Source: an uncultured archaeon
Lineage (GTDB): Archaea > Iainarchaeota > Iainarchaeia > Iainarchaeales > Iainarchaeaceae
Assembly: GCA_964577555.1 (NCBI GenBank)
Contig: CAZNZM010000002.1
Span: 33,012-65,011 of the forward strand
Reading direction: 5' to 3'
DNA: 32,000 bases
The stretch's first letter is position 1, and every line of letters starts with the position of its first letter. Below the pieces are notes generated by a model. That model searched no databases. It saw only the letters and a list, made by a program, of their open reading frames with translations, and had not been told where the DNA came from. The position numbers and the translations under genes are program-made. This document shows, in pieces, positions 2,700 through 27,201 of this stretch.

Positions 2700-4079
2700 T
2701 TATTCTTTTTTTAGGAATTCGGCGTAGTTTACCATGTGCATTATGGATTTTGCCGCTGAGCCGGGGTAGTCGTATGTTGTGAATCCGTGTTCTTCTATTT
2801 TTTTTAGTTGTTCTGCGGTGTATTCTCCTCCTACTGCAACAACTATTATTGGTTTGCTCGTGTTTTCTCTTGCTTGTTTTAGTATTGTGAGTTCGTCCGC
2901 GTTTAATGTTGAGAGTGTGAATAATATCATTATTACTATTATGTCTACGTTGTTGTCTTCTATGCATGCTTTGATTGCAATGTCGTATTTTTTGGCGTCT
3001 GCGTCTCCTAAAAGGTCAAGCGGGTTTGAGATTTTTATTTTCAGTTCTTGTTCTAGTTTTTCTTTTGTTTTTTCGCTGAGTGTTGCTAGTTCCATTTGTC
3101 TGTTTATTATGTGGTCTGCCATTACTATTCCGAATCCTCCTCCGTTTGTGATTATTTGTACTTTTTTGCCTTTTGGGAGGGGTTCGTTTTCAAGTATTTT
3201 TGCTGTTGAAAACAGGTCTTGTATTCCAAACGCTGATATTATGCCTGCTTGGTGGAAGACTGCTTCGTATACTTTTGCCGATCCTGCGAGTGAGCCGGTG
3301 TGTGAGATTGCTGCTTTGCTTGTTTCTTCGTGTTTTCCGCCTTTTAGTATTATGATTGGTTTTTTTTTGGCGACTTTTTTTGCTGTTTCAAAAAATTTTC
3401 TTCCGTTTTTTGCTCCTTCTAAGTACATTGTAATGACTTTTGTTCCTTTGTCTTCTCCAAAGTATTCGAGTAAATCTGATTCGTCTATGTCCATTGCGTT
3501 TCCGTATGATGCGAATTTGTTTAATCCGAATCTTTGTGTTGCAGCCCAGTCGAGTATCATTGAACCAAGTGCTCCGGATTGTGATATGAATGACAAGGTT
3601 CCTTTTGCAGGGCTTTTCATTCTTGTGTTTTCAAAAAACGTGGTGTCTATTCCGCTTTCTGTTGATTTTACTCCTACGCAATTTGGGCCCATTACTCTTG
3701 TTTGAGGGTATTTGTTTATTATTTGTCTTATCTTTTCGGTTAATTCTTTTTCTCCTGTTTCTGAAAATCCTGCGCTTATTATTATTGTTGCTTTTATTTG
3801 CATTTCTGCGCATTCTTCAAGTGTTTTTGGGACGAATTCTTTTGGCACTGCGATTATTGCAAGGTCTATGTTGTCTGGGACGGCTTTTATTGAGGAGTAT
3901 GCTTTTGTTCCTTGTATTGTAGTGTATTTTGGGTTTATTGGGTATGCTTTGTCTTTAAGAGCGTTTTTTATGTTTTTAAAAATAGTGTATCCTACGCTGT
4001 TTTCGTTGTTTGAGGCGCCTATTACTGCAGCGGTTTTTGGGTTGAAGAATTTGTCTATTGATTCTATGTTTTGTTTCAT
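2700..4079 (-). CDS. acdA: Acetate--CoA ligase (ADP-forming) alpha subunit / CoA-binding succinyl-CoA-synthetase-like protein
   Basis: 459-aa ORF. It has the N-terminal CoA-binding motif PKTAAVIGASNNENSVGY, MGPNCVG, FISQSGALG and the phosphohistidine-loop-like AISHTGSLAGS. Length and motif order match ACD alpha subunits. Confidence 0.8.
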   Translation of the reverse strand: MKQNIESIDKFFNPKTAAVIGASNNENSVGYTIFKNIKNALKDKAYPINPKYTTIQGTKAYSSIKAVPDNIDLAIIAVPKEFVPKTLEECAEMQIKATIIISAGFSETGEKELTEKIRQIINKYPQTRVMGPNCVGVKSTESGIDTTFFENTRMKSPAKGTLSFISQSGALGSMILDWAATQRFGLNKFASYGNAMDIDESDLLEYFGEDKGTKVITMYLEGAKNGRKFFETAKKVAKKKPIIILKGGKHEETSKAAISHTGSLAGSAKVYEAVFHQAGIISAFGIQDLFSTAKILENEPLPKGKKVQIITNGGGFGIVMADHIINRQMELATLSEKTKEKLEQELKIKISNPLDLLGDADAKKYDIAIKACIEDNNVDIIVIMILFTLSTLNADELTILKQARENTSKPIIVVAVGGEYTAEQLKKIEEHGFTTYDYPGSAAKSIMHMVNYAEFLKKE

Positions 4080-4558: not shown

Positions 4559-4876
4559 TATTTTTTTTGTTTGTCTTTTGGCTTGTTTTTGCAAGCCATG
4601 TTTGTTTTGTAAGCAGTTTTTTTGCAGAGACATTTTTTTCATTTTTTTTGAAATTAATTTTATTTTTGTATTTGTTTTGGCTGGTAGTTTTTTTGTGAAG
4701 CCATTTTTTTTAGGCATTTTTATTTTTTTGATCTAAATTATTTTTTGTCTTTTTTTTGGTAAAAAATGTTTTTTTATTGTTTGCTTTTTTGCAAGCTGTT
4801 TATTTTTTTTGAAAAAATAATTTTTTTGTTTTTGGTCGTTTTTTTTTGCGAGCCGTTTTAGGCAATTTTATTTTTT
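4559..4876 (+). repeat. T-tract island B (non-coding, T-rich on + strand)
   Basis: 318-bp spacer between converging 3' ends (small membrane protein gene on +, top6A on -). GCGAGCC at 4848-4854 is preceded by T9. Variants are GCAAGCC at 4591-4597 and GCAAGCT at 4791-4797. Confidence 0.75.
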
Positions 4877-5965
4877 TTATGGTAAAAAGTCTTCTTCTTT
4901 GATTTTTTTTGGCACGTATTCTTCTGTTATGAATCTTATTCCTTTTTTGCTTAGTGCTTCTAATTCCAGTTTTACTGCTTTTTGTCTCATGTTTGTGAAT
5001 TCTTCTTTCCATTGTTTTGCTTGGAACCATTCGTAATTTTCCATTTCTTTTAGCCTTTTAGCGTCTAGTTGGTTGAGTTTGATTGTGACTTCTTTTGGTA
5101 TTTTGAATTTTTCAATGTCTAGTGTTGTTAGTCCTACAAATTTTGCTGCTGGAGTTGCCAGTTTTTCTTCTGAGTATGAAAGCGATATTGAGCCTTGTTT
5201 TATTACTGAGTATATGTACATTCCCCATGGGTCTGCATCGCAGAGCACGTATAATGGCAAGCCGTATTCTTTGTTTAGTCTTTGTGCAAGCCTTCTTTCT
5301 CCTCTTCCTGGTTGGCCTCTTCCTGTTAGTATTATGCATTTGTGTTTTTTCCAGAATTGGTCTTCGTTGAATCTTCTCCATACTGCGTCTTTTTCAATGA
5401 ATAGTATGTATTCTGCGTTGACTTTTTTGAATTCTATGTTGTCTGGTTCAACGTTTGATGGTACGCTCCATCCGCCTGAGCCCATTTTTGTTAGGTCTAT
5501 GTTGTCTTTTCCGTCTCTGAGTTGTATGTCTCCTGCGATTATTCCTTTTGCTGAAGCCGCTAAGTGTAGTTCTTCTCTTAAGAGGTCTAGTGATGCTTCT
5601 ATGTCTTCGATGCATGGGTCTGATTCTGATTGTTCTTCAAAGGTGTTTTCGTTTGTGCCTTCTATTGTGTGTTTTAGTGCGTAGTAAAGATCCCTAATGC
5701 TTACTGTTGCTTTTGCTTCTATGACTTTTTTTATTTCTGCTGCTACGAGTATTGTTTGCATGAATTTTCTGCTGTGTGCAATGTTGAGGAATTGCCTCTC
5801 TGACATTTTGTCCCCGAGTTTTATTGTGCCGGTTTTTTTGTCAAAGAAGACGTTTCCTAGTGTTCTTACTGGCACTGCGTATGTTGGTCCTTTTCCTGCT
5901 TCTATTTGTTTTAGCAGTGTTGTTCCTATGTTTTCAAGTTTTTGTTGTACCTCTTTGTCCGCCAT
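4877..5965 (-). CDS. top6A: DNA topoisomerase VI subunit A (Spo11-like)
   Basis: 362-aa ORF. The catalytic-tyrosine region is VSIRDLYYALKH, and the Toprim acidic cluster is YVLCDADPWGMYIYSVIKQGS. It lies 2 nt downstream of top6B. Confidence 0.95.
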   Translation of the reverse strand: MADKEVQQKLENIGTTLLKQIEAGKGPTYAVPVRTLGNVFFDKKTGTIKLGDKMSERQFLNIAHSRKFMQTILVAAEIKKVIEAKATVSIRDLYYALKHTIEGTNENTFEEQSESDPCIEDIEASLDLLREELHLAASAKGIIAGDIQLRDGKDNIDLTKMGSGGWSVPSNVEPDNIEFKKVNAEYILFIEKDAVWRRFNEDQFWKKHKCIILTGRGQPGRGERRLAQRLNKEYGLPLYVLCDADPWGMYIYSVIKQGSISLSYSEEKLATPAAKFVGLTTLDIEKFKIPKEVTIKLNQLDAKRLKEMENYEWFQAKQWKEEFTNMRQKAVKLELEALSKKGIRFITEEYVPKKIKEEDFLP

Positions 5966-5967
5966 TT

Positions 5968-7704
5968 TTACTCACTCTCTTCTTCAAATCTTTGTTTATT
6001 TTTTGTTTTTTCTTTTGCTTTTTTTTCTTTTTCTTTTATTTTTTCAAAATTTTTTTCAATTTCTTCTTCTGTTGGTTCTCCTTTTGCTTCTAATTCTTTT
6101 TCTTTTTGTTCTTCTAGCTTAAGGTGTTTTAGCACTATGTTGTGGAGTTTTTCTTCTATTTCTTTTTTGTTCTTTTTTGTCAGTTCTGCTATTGCTGTTG
6201 CTACTTCGCTTGCGTATTTGTAGTACATTTTTCTTTTTGCTTCTTTTTCTGCTTGTCTTCTTACCATGCCAACGTAGTGGTATATTTTTCTTCCTGTTTC
6301 CATGATGGCTAATCTCAATTCTTCCATTATTTCGTCTTCGTCGCTTATTGCTTGTTTTCCTGCGCTTGTGTATGGTATGTGTACTGATATTAGGTTGACA
6401 AATATTGTGAGTGGCGCGTTTTCATAGTCTTTTAGTCCGTATCTTTTCCAGTCAATTGTTTGTATTGCTTTTGTTATTGCGCATCCGCCTTGATCGAATA
6501 GCAGTGGCGCTCTGTTTGCGAATCTCATTATTTCTATTTTTCTTGTTTTTTGTCCTTCTTCGTTTGTTTCTCCTTCTTTGCCTGCATTTCCGCCGTATGC
6601 TATTCCTACTTCTATTTGGAATGGAAATCCGCCTTTATATACTGCTGGTTTTCTTGTTACAACTGAGATGAATTCTGGTTTTACTATTGATTCGAGGCTT
6701 TTTTTTATTCTTTCTTCTCCTATTGGCAAGAGTCCGTCTGTGCGTGGCGCTATGAATGTCATTTTTTTGAATTGTTGTATTATTTCTTCCGCTTCTTCCC
6801 AGGTTAGTTGGTGGGGGTCTTTGTTGAGGTCAAATTTTAGGTTTTTTTGCATTTCTTCGATTGATTTGTCGCCTATTCTGTCGAATGTGTTTTTTAAAAA
6901 GGTTGAGACTTTTTTTGCTTCCGTGTACTTTGCAAGGGTATAGACTTCGTCCACGTTTACTCCTTTTGGATGTGGTTTCATTTCTATTGGTTTTCCAGGT
7001 AGTTCTTTGAGTGTTCTTTTGAAAATTGTTTTTTCTCCTGTGGGTTCTATGAATATTATTTGTGCGTGCGGGTTTGCTATTGCTGTCCTTCTTAAGTATT
7101 CTAATGGTGCTTGATCTGAATTTACGTATTTTACTCCTTTGAATTTTGCTTTTATTATTGTGCCTCTGAATTCTTTGTTTATTTCTTGCAAGTTGGATAT
7201 TTTTGGTTCGTTTTTTTTAGGGTCAATTGTGAGTTCAAGGCTTATAGGTTTTCCTTTGCCTGTTCCTGTAATGACTTGTACTGCTTTTCCTGTTGTTATT
7301 TGTGATAGCATAGTGCATCCTGATGCTCCGATTCCTTGTTGTCCGCGTGTTTGCATCATTCTGTGGAATTTTGTTCCTGCTAAGAGTTTTCCAAGAGCTT
7401 TGCCTACTGTTTCTTGTGTCAAGCCAGGCCCGTTGTCTTTTACAATGACTTCGTAATATTCTTCTCCAAGTTCTTTGATTTGGACTTCTACGTCTGGCAA
7501 TATGTTTGCTTCTTCGCATGCGTCTATTGAGTTTGTAACATATTCGTGGACTATTGTTGTAAGTGTTTTGATTTTTCCGGTTAATCCTAGCATTTGCATG
7601 TTCTTTTTGAAGAATTCGGCCACGCTGTGTTCTTTGAATTCTTTTGCTATTTCTTCGGCTGTTTTGCCGTTGCTTTGTATGTTTTCTTCTGCCATTTTTT
7701 TCAC
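5968..7704 (-). CDS. top6B: DNA topoisomerase VI subunit B (GHKL ATPase)
   Basis: 578-aa ORF with Bergerat-fold motifs EYVTNSIDACEE (N box), VKDNGPGL (G1) and GQQGIGASG (G2). It ends in a K/E-rich acidic-basic tail. The GTG at 7704 overlaps the KH gene stop (GTGA); the ATG at 7695 is an alternative start. Confidence 0.95.
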   Translation of the reverse strand: MKKMAEENIQSNGKTAEEIAKEFKEHSVAEFFKKNMQMLGLTGKIKTLTTIVHEYVTNSIDACEEANILPDVEVQIKELGEEYYEVIVKDNGPGLTQETVGKALGKLLAGTKFHRMMQTRGQQGIGASGCTMLSQITTGKAVQVITGTGKGKPISLELTIDPKKNEPKISNLQEINKEFRGTIIKAKFKGVKYVNSDQAPLEYLRRTAIANPHAQIIFIEPTGEKTIFKRTLKELPGKPIEMKPHPKGVNVDEVYTLAKYTEAKKVSTFLKNTFDRIGDKSIEEMQKNLKFDLNKDPHQLTWEEAEEIIQQFKKMTFIAPRTDGLLPIGEERIKKSLESIVKPEFISVVTRKPAVYKGGFPFQIEVGIAYGGNAGKEGETNEEGQKTRKIEIMRFANRAPLLFDQGGCAITKAIQTIDWKRYGLKDYENAPLTIFVNLISVHIPYTSAGKQAISDEDEIMEELRLAIMETGRKIYHYVGMVRRQAEKEAKRKMYYKYASEVATAIAELTKKNKKEIEEKLHNIVLKHLKLEEQKEKELEAKGEPTEEEIEKNFEKIKEKEKKAKEKTKNKQRFEEESE

Positions 7705-8234
7705 AATTCAAATTTTTGATTGTTGTAATGTCTTTTTAAAGATTCGTATGCCATGTTGTGTGTTGCTCCGCCCAAGAGCATTTCTATTGCGCTTTTTGCT
7801 TTTTCGACTCCTTCTGGTTTGCCTATTATTGATATGGTTTTGCCGTAAACCGATATTTTTGTTCCTGTTTCTTTTTCTATTTCTTCTCTTGCTTCTCCTT
7901 TGCTGCCTATTACTCTTCCTTTTTTTGCTTTCATTCTGTTTTCGCTTTTTCCGAGTATTTCTCTTAATTCAATTATTTCGAGTGTTGTTTCGTCTTGCAG
8001 TAGTTTGAAAGCGTTTTCCGGTGAAAATCCTCGCCCTATTGCTTTTACTATATTCATTGCTTTGAGAAAGCCGATTGGGTTGCCTTTCATTTGTATTTCG
8101 ACTTCTCCTGAATTGCTGTCAATTTCAATTTTTGTATGCGTAGTTTTGGCTATGTATGTTTTTGTTTTTCCTTTTTGTCCTATTAAGACTCCTATGCGTT
8201 CGTGCGGTATCAAGAGAAATTCCGTGTTTTGCAT
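7701..8234 (-). CDS. KH-domain RNA-binding protein (two type-1 KH domains, Pno1/Dim2-like)
   Basis: 177-aa ORF with two GxxG KH loops (GVLIGQKGKTK and GRVIGSKGEARE). A KH protein next to a RIO kinase and aIF-1A is a common archaeal neighbourhood. Confidence 0.8.
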   Translation of the reverse strand: MQNTEFLLIPHERIGVLIGQKGKTKTYIAKTTHTKIEIDSNSGEVEIQMKGNPIGFLKAMNIVKAIGRGFSPENAFKLLQDETTLEIIELREILGKSENRMKAKKGRVIGSKGEAREEIEKETGTKISVYGKTISIIGKPEGVEKAKSAIEMLLGGATHNMAYESLKRHYNNQKFEL

Positions 8235-8282
8235 TTTAATGATAAAATATGTTGAAGTATTATTAAGTTATTGTCTTTCCTG

Positions 8283-8667
8283 AATTTTAAAAAGTGCTTT
8301 GCAGGTCGTTTTTTTTATTTTTCTATTGTTTTTTTAGTCATTTTTTTTGTCTATTCTGGTTTTTGTCTCTTTTTTTTAATTTTTTTCTTTTGTGTGTTTT
8401 TTTTCAAGCCGTTTTTTTGTTTTTTTTGGTGAGCCTTTTTATTTTTTGAATTTTGTTTTTTTTGTTTTTTTTTGGCGAGTCTTTTTTTTCTATTTTTTTG
8501 CTTTATTTTTTTTGTTCTTTTCAGTGTTGTGTTTGTTTTTTTATTTGCAATTTGTTTTTTTTGTTAACTGTTTTTTTTTGACAATTTTTATTTTTTTTAA
8601 GTTTTATTTTTTTAGGCTGTTTTTTTTGGATTTCTTTTGGTTGTTTTGGCGATTTTTGGAGTTTGGT
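8283..8667 (+). repeat. T-tract island C (non-coding, T-rich on + strand, shares a near-identical block with island D)
   Basis: The spacer lies between the rio 3' end and the KH gene 5' end, both on the - strand. CAAGCC at 8405-8410, GAGCC at 8431-8435 and GCGAGTC at 8475-8481. Positions 8431-8481 match 19146-19196 at 50 of 51 positions. Confidence 0.8.
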
Positions 8668-9441
8668 TTATTTTTTTTCTATTTCTTTTTTTCTTTGTTT
8701 TATGTCTGAGTACATTTTTTCGTAGTTGGTTTTAACTCCTTTTTTTGCAAAGTATGTTGACATGTTTAGTATGTCTCTTTCAAAGAATTCTTTGCTTTTT
8801 GGGTGTGAGGTTATGACTGCTTGTGCAAAATCTATGAACCATAATTTTTTTTCTTTGACGAGTATGTTGTATTCTGAAAGGTCGGAGTGTATCAGGCCAG
8901 CCATGTAGTATTTTACTATGAAATTTATTGTTTGTTCGTAGTAGTTTTCAAGTTCTTTTGGAGTTGGGTTTGTTTCTTTGAGCCTTGGTGCTGGTGTTGA
9001 ATTTTTTCCGATGAATTCCATTACTACTATGTTGTTTTTGAATGCTAGTGGCAGCGGGACGTTGAGTTTTGCGTGGGTTGCTTCAAGGAGGTTTTTGAAT
9101 TCTTTTTTTGCCCATGAGTTTATTAGGTTTCTTATGTCTGTTTTGATTTTTCCGAATCTGTGGTCTCCTGCAATGTATTCGTTCATTCGTTTGAAATTTG
9201 TTGTTTCTTTTTTGTATATTTTGACTGCTCTTGTTCTGCCAGCCAAGTCTGTTGCGGCAAATACGTGTGCTTCTTTTCCTGTGCTTATAATGTGTTCAAG
9301 CACGTCAAAGTGTCCTTTTTGTGCTAGGTCATGTATTGTGTCAAGTGTTTGTTTGTCAAATACTTTTGCAAATGTTTTTCTATCTGATTCTTTTTTGAAT
9401 CTTTTTTCTAAAATCGGGTTGTCTTCGTATTCTATTTCCAT
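8668..9441 (-). CDS. rio1: RIO-type serine/threonine protein kinase (Rio1-like)
   Basis: 257-aa ORF with RIO signatures ISTGKEAHVF (STGKEA), AVKIYK, LIHSDLSEYNIL (HxDLSEYN) and FIDFAQAV (IDxxQ). Confidence 0.9.
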   Translation of the reverse strand: MEIEYEDNPILEKRFKKESDRKTFAKVFDKQTLDTIHDLAQKGHFDVLEHIISTGKEAHVFAATDLAGRTRAVKIYKKETTNFKRMNEYIAGDHRFGKIKTDIRNLINSWAKKEFKNLLEATHAKLNVPLPLAFKNNIVVMEFIGKNSTPAPRLKETNPTPKELENYYEQTINFIVKYYMAGLIHSDLSEYNILVKEKKLWFIDFAQAVITSHPKSKEFFERDILNMSTYFAKKGVKTNYEKMYSDIKQRKKEIEKK

Positions 9442-9488: not shown

Positions 9489-9812
9489 TTATGTTTGGAA
9501 TTTGTTTAAGTAGCCGTTTTTTTTGAGGTGTTCTACTTGTGTGCCTATGTATCTCCAAACCACGTCCGCTTTTGATGGTTGGAAGTCCCATAATTTTATT
9601 ATGACAATGTCTCTTTCTCTCAGCCATGTTTTCTTTTTCATTCTTCCAGGTATTCTGCATATTCTTTCTTTTCCGTCTTCGCATAGTATTTTGACTTGGT
9701 TGGAGCCGTGGAGTTGTATTACTTGTCCGAACATTTCCAGTTTGTCTTTTTTTGGCATAACTATTTTTCTTAAATGTTCTTCTTGGATTTCTTGTTCGTT
9801 TTCTTCTGTCAC
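9489..9812 (-). CDS. eif1a: Translation initiation factor aIF-1A
   Basis: 107-aa ORF. The S1/OB core is GQVIQLHGSNQVKILCEDGKERICRIPGRMKKKTWLRERDIVIIKLWDFQPSKADVVWRY. Confidence 0.92.
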   Translation of the reverse strand: MTEENEQEIQEEHLRKIVMPKKDKLEMFGQVIQLHGSNQVKILCEDGKERICRIPGRMKKKTWLRERDIVIIKLWDFQPSKADVVWRYIGTQVEHLKKNGYLNKFQT

Positions 9813-18352: not shown

Positions 18353-19015
18353 TTATTCGAATATTTTTCTTCCAATTCTTATTACTGTTGCTCCTTCTTC
18401 TATTGCTATTTCATAATCGTTGCTCATTCCCATGCTGAGGTGTTTTAAATTAAGGTTTTCTTTTATGTCGCATAATTTTTGGAAATATGGCCTTGCTTCT
18501 TCGGGGTTTTTGACCAATGGTGCTATTGTCATGAGGCCTATGAATTTTACGTTGTTGTATGGCAGGTTTTTCATTGTTGTAAGCATTGATTCCACTTCTT
18601 CTGGTTTCATTCCGTATTTTTGCGGTTCGTTTGATGTATTAACTTGCAGAAAAATGTTTTGTATTTTTTCGATGTCGAGGCTTGCGTAATGTATTTTTCT
18701 TAGCAAGTCAAGGCTGTCAACCGATTGTATGTAATCGCACATTTGAACTGCTTTTTTTACTTTGTTGCTTTGCAAGTGTCCTATAAAGTGTATGTCTGTT
18801 TTGAGTTCTTTTAAGTCAGGGTATTTTTCTTCGAGTTCTTGTATGGTGCTTTCGCCTATGTCTGTAATGCCGTGTGAAACAGCTTCTTTTATTTGGTTTA
18901 TTTCTCTTTCTTTTGTTGCCGCCACTATTGTTATTTCTTCTGGTTTTCTTCTGACTTTATTGCATGCCTTGGCAATTGTTTTTCTTATTTCTTCAATGTT
19001 TTGTTTTATGCTCAT
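18353..19015 (-). CDS. YggS-family pyridoxal-phosphate homeostasis protein
   Basis: 220-aa ORF. VAATKEREINQI and HFIGHLQSNKVKK are characteristic of the YggS/PROSC family. Confidence 0.85.
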   Translation of the reverse strand: MSIKQNIEEIRKTIAKACNKVRRKPEEITIVAATKEREINQIKEAVSHGITDIGESTIQELEEKYPDLKELKTDIHFIGHLQSNKVKKAVQMCDYIQSVDSLDLLRKIHYASLDIEKIQNIFLQVNTSNEPQKYGMKPEEVESMLTTMKNLPYNNVKFIGLMTIAPLVKNPEEARPYFQKLCDIKENLNLKHLSMGMSNDYEIAIEEGATVIRIGRKIFE

Positions 19016-19345
19016 GTTTATTATTTTATTGCGTCATGTTTTTATTATTCTTGGCTTAATTGTTTTTTTTGTCTTTGTTTTGTTTTTTTTTTCAAGCCGT
19101 TTTTTTGTTTGTTAGTTTTTTTAGTTATTTTTTTGTTTTTTTTATGAGCCTTTTTATTTTTTGAATTTTGTTTTTTTTGTTTTTTTTTGGCGAGCCTTTT
19201 TTTGTCATTTTTTTTTGTAAGTCATTTTTTTCTTGTTTTTTTTTGTGGATTGTTTTTTTTATAAGCCAATTATTTTTTTTGTTTTTTTGGCGAGCGTTTT
19301 TTTTGGTATTTTTTTTGAAATTTTGTTTTTTTTTCTTTTTGGTTT
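19016..19345 (+). repeat. T-tract island D (non-coding, T-rich on + strand)
   Basis: The spacer lies between the aIF-5A 3' end and the yggS 5' end, both on the - strand. CAAGCC at 19093-19098, GAGCC at 19146-19150, GCGAGCC at 19190-19196, AAGCC at 19262-19266 and GCGAGCG at 19290-19296. It shares a block with island C. Confidence 0.8.
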
Positions 19346-19759
19346 TTATTTTGTCTCGCCTTTTTTGCCTACTACTCGTATTAGCGAGCCCCATTTTATG
19401 TATTGTACTTCGTTTCCGCTTGCAAGCCCCGTAACGTCTTTCGGTTTTTCAATTTCGTTTATTGAATAATCTTTTGTGTCCATTATTTGTATTCTGTCTC
19501 CCATTATTGCTACTACTTGTGCGTCGCCTTTTTCAATTATGGGAATTTCAACATCGGCATCCACCGGTTTGAGAAGTGTTTTTTTGACGTCTCTGAATAT
19601 TCCCATTCCTGTGGCCCTGATTTTTGCCGCTCCGTGTTTTCCCGGTTTTGATTTTTCAACGCCTTTTATTTGACAGGGTTCTCCTTCAATTAGCGCGTAT
19701 GATCCTTCTTTAAGGTCTCCTGCGTATCCGAATTTTTTTTCTCCTTCAGTTATTACCAT
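19346..19759 (-). CDS. eif5a: Translation initiation factor aIF-5A
   Basis: 137-aa ORF with the hypusine-site loop SKPGKHGAAKIR. AGGTGA lies 8 nt upstream of the ATG on the - strand. Confidence 0.92.
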   Translation of the reverse strand: MVITEGEKKFGYAGDLKEGSYALIEGEPCQIKGVEKSKPGKHGAAKIRATGMGIFRDVKKTLLKPVDADVEIPIIEKGDAQVVAIMGDRIQIMDTKDYSINEIEKPKDVTGLASGNEVQYIKWGSLIRVVGKKGETK

Positions 19760-27119: not shown

Positions 27120-27128
27120 TTGTTTTGG

Positions 27129-27201
27129 TGGGCCCGGCAGGAATTGAACCTGCTACCTCCACCGTGTCAAGGTGACGTCATAACCGATAGACCACGGGCC
27201 C
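27129..27201 (-). tRNA. tRNA-Val(GAC)
   Basis: The reverse complement folds by hand. Acceptor is GGGCCCG/CGGGCCC with discriminator A, the anticodon arm is TCACC-TTGACAC-GGTGG (anticodon GAC), and the T arm is GCAGG-TTCAATT-CCTGC. A genomically encoded CCA follows at 27126-27128. Confidence 0.85.

Follow-up and report, generated by a model that had tools for sequence, protein, structure and literature searches.

Near-identical tracts in two intergenic T-run islands of an Iainarchaeota genome: probable recent copying within a dispersed repeat family

The question raised by this locus is why two separate gene gaps of one archaeal genome carry a 51-nt block of T-rich DNA that differs between them at a single position. 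The window, the whole stretch of 32,000 nucleotides that was analysed, corresponds to positions 33012 to 65011 of contig C2 in an assembly of 979 kb, 15 contigs and 95.5% completeness. Its gene content is archaeal (aIF-1A, a RIO kinase, a KH-domain protein, TopoVI subunits A and B, MCM, aIF-5A and aIF-2 beta). Island C (bp 8235 to 8667, plus strand, 65% T) fills the entire gap between the stop of the RIO kinase gene (bp 8668 to 9441), which is followed by the aIF-1A gene (bp 9489 to 9812, minus strand), and the start of a gene for a KRR1/Pno1-like KH-domain protein (bp 7701 to 8234). Island D (bp 19016 to 19345, plus strand, approximately 65% T) likewise fills the entire gap between the stop of the aIF-5A gene (bp 19346 to 19759) and the start of a gene for a YggS-like PLP-binding protein of the Ala_racemase_N fold (bp 18353 to 19015). 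The RIO, KH, aIF-5A and yggS-like genes are all on the minus strand, and in the sense of these genes both islands are A tracts. A further stretch of 61% T was observed at bp 5927 to 6248, inside or at the junction of the minus-strand TopoVI A and B genes, and part of its T-richness falls within coding sequence, where it takes the form of Lys/Glu-rich or similar segments.

The block occupies bp 8431 to 8481 in island C and bp 19146 to 19196 in island D, on the plus strand in both. As the earlier note on this DNA had stated, 50 of the 51 positions match and the sole difference is T at 8480 against C at 19195; the longest exact run common to the two islands is 50 nt (8430-8479 and 19145-19194). 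The block represents one tandem unit, core to core. In island C it runs from a first core, GGTGAGCC (8428-8435), to a second and decayed one, GGCGAGTC (8474-8481), and in island D the corresponding cores are ATGAGCC (19144-19150) and the canonical GGCGAGCC (19189-19196). The single mismatch is a C/T change inside the second core, where island C has GCGAGTC, a rare decayed form. Within this genome the two-core arrangement is whole only in islands C and D.

Homology extends beyond the block on both sides, the full tract covering bp 8394 to 8499 of island C (106 nt) and bp 19082 to 19214 of island D (133 nt), again on the plus strand. Global alignment of these tracts gave 99 identical columns among the 106 ungapped ones, 7 mismatches and one 27-nt gap. 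The upstream block that had been described as common to both islands (T run, CAAGCCG, T7, G) was recovered in this alignment, and the T8 of one copy differs from the T10 of the other by a G/T substitution, not by slippage. The 27 extra nucleotides attributed to island D correspond to the single gap; they lie at bp 19109 to 19135 (plus strand) and consist of two short spacer-plus-T7 units, and the T7-G direct repeats on both sides leave the placement of the gap ambiguous by a few bases. Ends of this kind are the mark that slippage or unequal exchange leaves.

Chance convergence of low-complexity T-rich sequence might be suspected, as islands C and D are both about 65% T and draw on one small common set of spacer words. 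The local alignment score of island C against island D was 68. Dinucleotide shuffles (n=1000) gave a mean score of 23.9 (sd 3.7, maximum 41; z = 12), and shuffles that reordered intact T runs and spacers (n=1000) gave a mean of 28.7 (sd 4.3; z = 9). The comparison with shuffled T-rich controls that the earlier note had recommended therefore placed the C/D score far above expectation (z = 9 to 12). Since the maximum was 46 in 1000 shuffles that kept all T runs and spacers, chance convergence is ruled out as an explanation, with practically no probability left to it, and the proposal that the identity reflects recent copying or selection and not convergent low complexity was upheld. Among real island pairs of comparable size (n=1500), a score of 68 or higher was reached by 0.47%.

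A whole-genome scan for 100-nt windows in which T or A reached 62% or more revealed 292 islands totaling 74.5 kb, or 7.6% of the genome, with a composition of 63% T, 14.5% G, 14% A and 8% C. The lengths of their T runs are not geometrically distributed: runs of 6, 7, 8, 9 and 10 nt number 598, 961, 1113, 377 and 61, with a mode at 8 and a sharp fall above 9. Autocorrelation of T-run starts showed a weak peak at approximately 15-16 nt instead of 10-11 nt, and helical A-tract phasing was rejected. Among the long spacers the most frequent is the core word G[C/T]GAGCC with A or G after it, set in a context of T7-8, an optional G, the core and T7. On the T strand of the islands the core was counted 167 times; its reverse complement was absent there, and the reversed word occurred once. 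The other 572 kb hold 24 copies on the T strand and 8 reverse complements; core density is about 50-fold higher inside the islands than outside. The counts of 167:0 and 24:8 show an orientation bias, which may or may not be tied to the direction of replication as in polar words of the KOPS/Chi type; the spread into genes of such replication-oriented words was not found, the core being concentrated in the islands. Position 2 of the core is C or T about equally often and positions 6-7 are C in approximately 90% of copies. This CC is kept though the strand otherwise loses C, which fits selection on the core as well as it fits ongoing copying. No preferred core-to-core distance was found in the islands.

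The search for further copies in the genome that the earlier note had suggested showed that the C/D pair is one of more than 100 shared patches within a genome-wide family. In an all-against-all island comparison with a cut-off of at least 40 nt and at least 94% identity, there were at least 119 inter-island matches, compared with 13 after token shuffling within islands and 5 after genome-wide token shuffling. Matches of at least 50 nt numbered 64, compared with 3 and 1 in the two shuffles, and the longest match was 285 nt at 98% identity. Some of the matches, exact over 55 nt and located at contig ends or beside N gaps, resemble overlaps made by the assembler. When islands near a contig end or N gap were removed, the resulting clean set contained 47 matches among 47 of 258 islands, and 19 of these 47 matches were on the same contig, against an expectation of 17.9%.

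Island C is a mosaic of two such patches. Its bp 8394 to 8488 follow island D, and its right-hand tract (bp 8493 to 8613, plus strand) follows bp 91890 to 92008 of contig C3 of the same genome at approximately 96% identity, the switch of partner falling in a T8 run near 8483-8492. High-identity patches were thus found within much less similar flanks, and adjacent patches were found to have different partners, as would be looked for in ectopic conversion or template switching. The 3' half of the block (T8, G, T9, GGCGAGCC, T7, GTCA, T8) is a module that is also present in at least 8 other islands, and it is canonical in island D and decayed in island C.

Both islands also have the head-to-tail organization of tandem arrays, in that TRF detected degenerate units in island C at 8412-8513 (period 45, 2.3 copies, 79%) and in island D at 19062-19189 (period 53, 2.4 copies, 79%), 19209-19304 (period 44) and 19171-19245 (period 27-28). 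Identity between adjacent units of one island is approximately 79%, compared with 93-98% for the C-D tract. The tandem duplications are therefore older than the inter-island copy, and the higher likeness between islands suggests that a two-core segment was copied ready-made. The conserved T8 and T9 runs of the block had been put forward as an argument for recent copying or selection. Across all shared tracts, 293 T runs of 6 nt or longer have the same length in both copies and 114 differ, at 6.1% substitutions; with 72% of runs kept at about 6% divergence, unchanged T8 and T9 runs are to be expected of a recent copy. The argument consequently stands for recent copying, but selection on run length is not needed.

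Island polarity is uniform within contigs C2, C3 and C4: the plus strand of all islands is T-rich on the first two and A-rich on C4. On C1 the polarity of the islands switches near 148-150 kb. At this point of C1 the A/T skew was also seen to flip, from A-rich to T-rich within approximately 2 kb. Two Orc1/Cdc6-like genes are located away from the C1 flip, at C1:60960 and C4:16076. The base fractions of whole contigs are similarly lopsided (T 0.415 and A 0.244 in C2; A 0.458 and T 0.202 in C4). Gene orientation is balanced on these contigs (85/75, 72/69 and 65/54), and island polarity is therefore not a gene-strand effect. For islands of at least 150 nt, the sign of the island agreed with the sign of the A/T skew in its 15-kb surroundings, calculated with islands masked, in 173 of 181 cases. 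Islands were present at 26% of convergent, 14% of divergent, 14% of tandem A-sense and 10% of tandem T-sense junctions. Such a distribution resembles tolerance at the least harmful sites more than the placement of a designed terminator.

Taken together, the sequence comparisons make it probable that recent copying between two members of a dispersed, non-coding repeat family gave rise to the block. Each island is built of degenerate units of about 27-53 nt arranged head to tail and composed of T7-T9 runs, short spacers and the core G[C/T]GAGCC, with the T runs always on the G+T-rich strand of a strongly strand-asymmetric genome. In such arrays, units would be gained and lost when T runs slip or exchange unequally, the 27-nt indel being a likely example, and we infer that arrays trade segments through ectopic gene conversion or through template switching during replication, starting and ending in T runs. 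The runs could prime this exchange by supplying 7-9 nt of microhomology everywhere and in constant orientation. Exchange that starts and ends in T runs would explain how a D-like tract came to be joined, in the mosaic of island C, to one otherwise found on another contig.

A different origin of the identity would be constraint or concerted evolution acting on a selected functional cis element, in which two cores in T tracts are bound by a putative lineage-specific protein; it might be, for example, a polar signal connected with replication or chromosome organization, or a zone where one of the template strands is primed. Such an element would suit the single orientation of the core (167 to 0), the retention of CC at positions 6-7 on a C-poor strand, the T-run mode at 8 without geometric decay, and the agreement of polarity with the island-masked flank skew (173 of 181). 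We nevertheless consider it unlikely, as the full tract is present only twice, neither the four same-genus genomes nor any other genome searched shows enrichment of the core, and the cores have no fixed spacing. Furthermore, the block lies at different distances from the downstream gene starts in the two islands (178-265 nt in C, 113-199 nt in D), and islands are commonest at convergent junctions (26%, against 10-14% elsewhere), where least regulation is expected. It is also rather improbable that the arrays as such are working polar signals and not junk, with the core in T tracts serving as a priming, loading or strand-marking site; they would then be linked to the replication or repair regime behind the strand asymmetry, and concerted evolution would keep their modules uniform.

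Dispersed copies in the same orientation, a polarity tied to strand asymmetry and a 27-nt indel with flanking direct repeats could also be left by a small non-autonomous mobile element (MITE, REP or PATE-like) with strand-specific insertion into T runs, as in IS200/IS605. This we think quite improbable: neither a Y1 transposase (PF01797) nor a TnpB-type domain (PF07282) was matched in the 95.5% complete genome, although both searches matched in control genomes. No inverted repeats were found in the islands, and in place of terminal inverted repeats or hairpins there are only a few scattered GGCTTG/CAAGCC pairs. In addition, the shared patches vary in length and ends and define no single element, and no copies were found in the viral contigs or other genomes searched. 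The identity of C and D would be an assembly artefact if a repeat had been collapsed or mis-joined, a concern raised by the fact that 12 of the 30 contig ends and several N gaps fall in T-run islands, and by exact 55-nt duplicates beside several of these gaps that look like k-mer overlaps of the assembler. For this particular pair it is a very improbable source, since C and D are internal to a 152-kb contig and have unique genes on either side, and the only N run of C2 is at 2912-3011. The longest exact run (50 nt) is also shorter than the 55-nt overlaps, and the copies differ at 7 positions and one indel. The arrays are, however, the main cause of assembly breaks; they present difficulties to an assembler, and the genome may contain more of them than was counted.

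Recent copying within the repeat family is the reading that we retain, and several other identities for the islands were rejected. Rfam searches of the window identified only a tRNA-Val (bp 27126 to 27201) and no family at the islands, and with folding z-scores of -0.1 to +0.9 on both strands, a structured RNA was dismissed. Protein-coding function was dismissed because the ORFs in the islands are poly-Phe without a Pfam hit and the second core is in different frames in C and D. A hairpin terminator made up of GGCTTG, a T run and GCGAGCC can be drawn at only 15 of 219 cores. Island B was observed to contain a perfect 6-bp hairpin at bp 4580 to 4597 (GGCTTG, T5, GCAAGCC), and a few GGCTTG/GCAAGCC pairs of the genome resemble bacterial-style terminator hairpins. 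A terminator role of islands C and D for their flanking genes was also discarded, as the sense strand of these genes has A runs where the other strand has T runs. Genome-wide, oligo-T of T5 or longer was found within 60 nt past the stop of 76% of genes on the T-rich strand compared with 22% of those on the A-rich strand, so that most genes of the latter group lack such a run; bp 8600 to 8667 and bp 19280 to 19345 serve as examples in the window. By analogy with archaeal oligo-T termination as outlined in PMC2253867, we infer that each run could be a potential terminator on the T strand and that an array would stop plus-sense transcription. Minus-sense transcription from RIO to KH and from aIF-5A to yggS would pass through C and D as A tracts.

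The arrays with their core are restricted to this lineage among the genomes searched. A strict pattern of the core in a T tract was found 37 times here and not at all in 30 relatives, four of the same genus included, and a looser core pattern was found 114 times here and 1-6 times in relatives. Among 185,579 species genomes the core-plus-T pattern gave single hits only, in 77 unrelated genomes, and viral contigs gave 3 singletons. A 34-nt piece of the block had no match in the other genomes scanned, and a scan of metagenome contigs with RIO found no near relative, the best match being 53% identical. The literature consulted on Iainarchaeota GC skew and DPANN strand asymmetry does not describe these arrays. 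Triple T7 arrays, which do not involve the core, gave 1556 matches here, 123 and 89 in two same-genus genomes and 65 or fewer elsewhere. Of the five genomes of the genus, three combine arrays with skewed loci (this genome, G000, together with G001 and G002), and the other two have neither arrays nor skew and a higher GC content. Because arrays and asymmetry co-occur in this way, the arrays may be a readout of a replication or repair peculiarity that drives the asymmetry, but with five related genomes behind it this co-occurrence is only a hint.

Gene order in relatives was consistent with the earlier observation that island C interrupts a normally contiguous set of genes: the order aIF-1A, RIO, KH, TopoVI-B is kept in most relatives (19 loci). 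The suggested check of RIO-KH contiguity gave a gap of 50-140 nt in 14 of the 19 loci, and the larger gaps in relatives contain ordinary, non-T-rich DNA. The yggS/aIF-5A junction of island D was found in none of 20 relatives, and the gap behind aIF-5A in the closest relative is approximately 70 nt. Since the gaps of relatives are short or ordinary, C and D are recent, lineage-specific gap fillings, with C lying inside a conserved gene string. At one same-genus locus (L004, G002:C7:18021-21761), KH and RIO point away from each other across 1.1 kb. The rearrangement breakpoint at that locus coincides precisely with the junction that island C occupies in the present genome.

Unusual as the repeat family is, the block is one of its ordinary products. 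Alone it carries little weight, and it is of interest as one visible trace of sequence exchange among the repeats of a genome-reduced archaeon that devotes 7.6% of its DNA to strand-locked T-run arrays. The arrays are unusual in that their one-orientation core word was found in no other species searched beyond singletons or a few copies, and in that they are also placed inside conserved operon junctions such as RIO-KH. In practical terms they break assemblies, as the 12 contig ends show, and yield spurious poly-Phe ORFs.

Among known systems, the islands can be compared with minisatellites and other tandem arrays, whose evolution proceeds through slippage, unequal exchange and ectopic gene conversion and whose usual hallmark is length polymorphism. 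The islands resemble them in their degenerate head-to-tail units, in indels bounded by direct repeats and in the mosaic of near-identical patches between arrays. They differ in that approximately 290 arrays are dispersed in the gene gaps of a 1-Mb archaeal genome, keep to one strand relative to the skew and have T7-T9 runs throughout. REP/BIME and ERIC sequences are dispersed intergenic repeats of bacteria, and they are likewise short, non-coding, species-specific, mosaic and confined to gene gaps. Unlike these, the present repeats have no palindromic hairpin and no RAYT or Y1 transposase, and are of extreme low complexity. The poly(dA:dT) tracts of AT-rich intergenic DNA in eukaryotes are long A/T homopolymer runs that occur on either strand. 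They share with the islands a concentration of A/T homopolymer runs in intergenic DNA, but the islands have a fixed polarity, a period of approximately 15-16 nt rather than 10-11 nt and an interleaved GC-rich core.

With respect to base asymmetry, the Microgenomates bacterium Ch65, one of the small uncultured genomes with strand composition disparity, is reported to have a G/C strand disparity and no A/T disparity (PMC7143001). There too, whole contigs have one base-enriched strand regardless of gene direction, as the account of its disparity states (PMC7143001). The A/T disparity is stronger here and arrays follow it, whereas that account of Ch65 reports no arrays (PMC7143001). With respect to the T runs, a close counterpart is the archaeal oligo-T intrinsic terminator, which likewise consists of sense-strand runs of at least 5 T. 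As reported in PMC2253867, the histone gene of Pyrococcus furiosus is followed by four consecutive oligo-T terminators. Unlike such terminators, islands C and D lie between genes of the opposite strand and are read as A tracts, and the arrays comprise 20-30 runs over 300-500 nt together with a core word that terminators lack.
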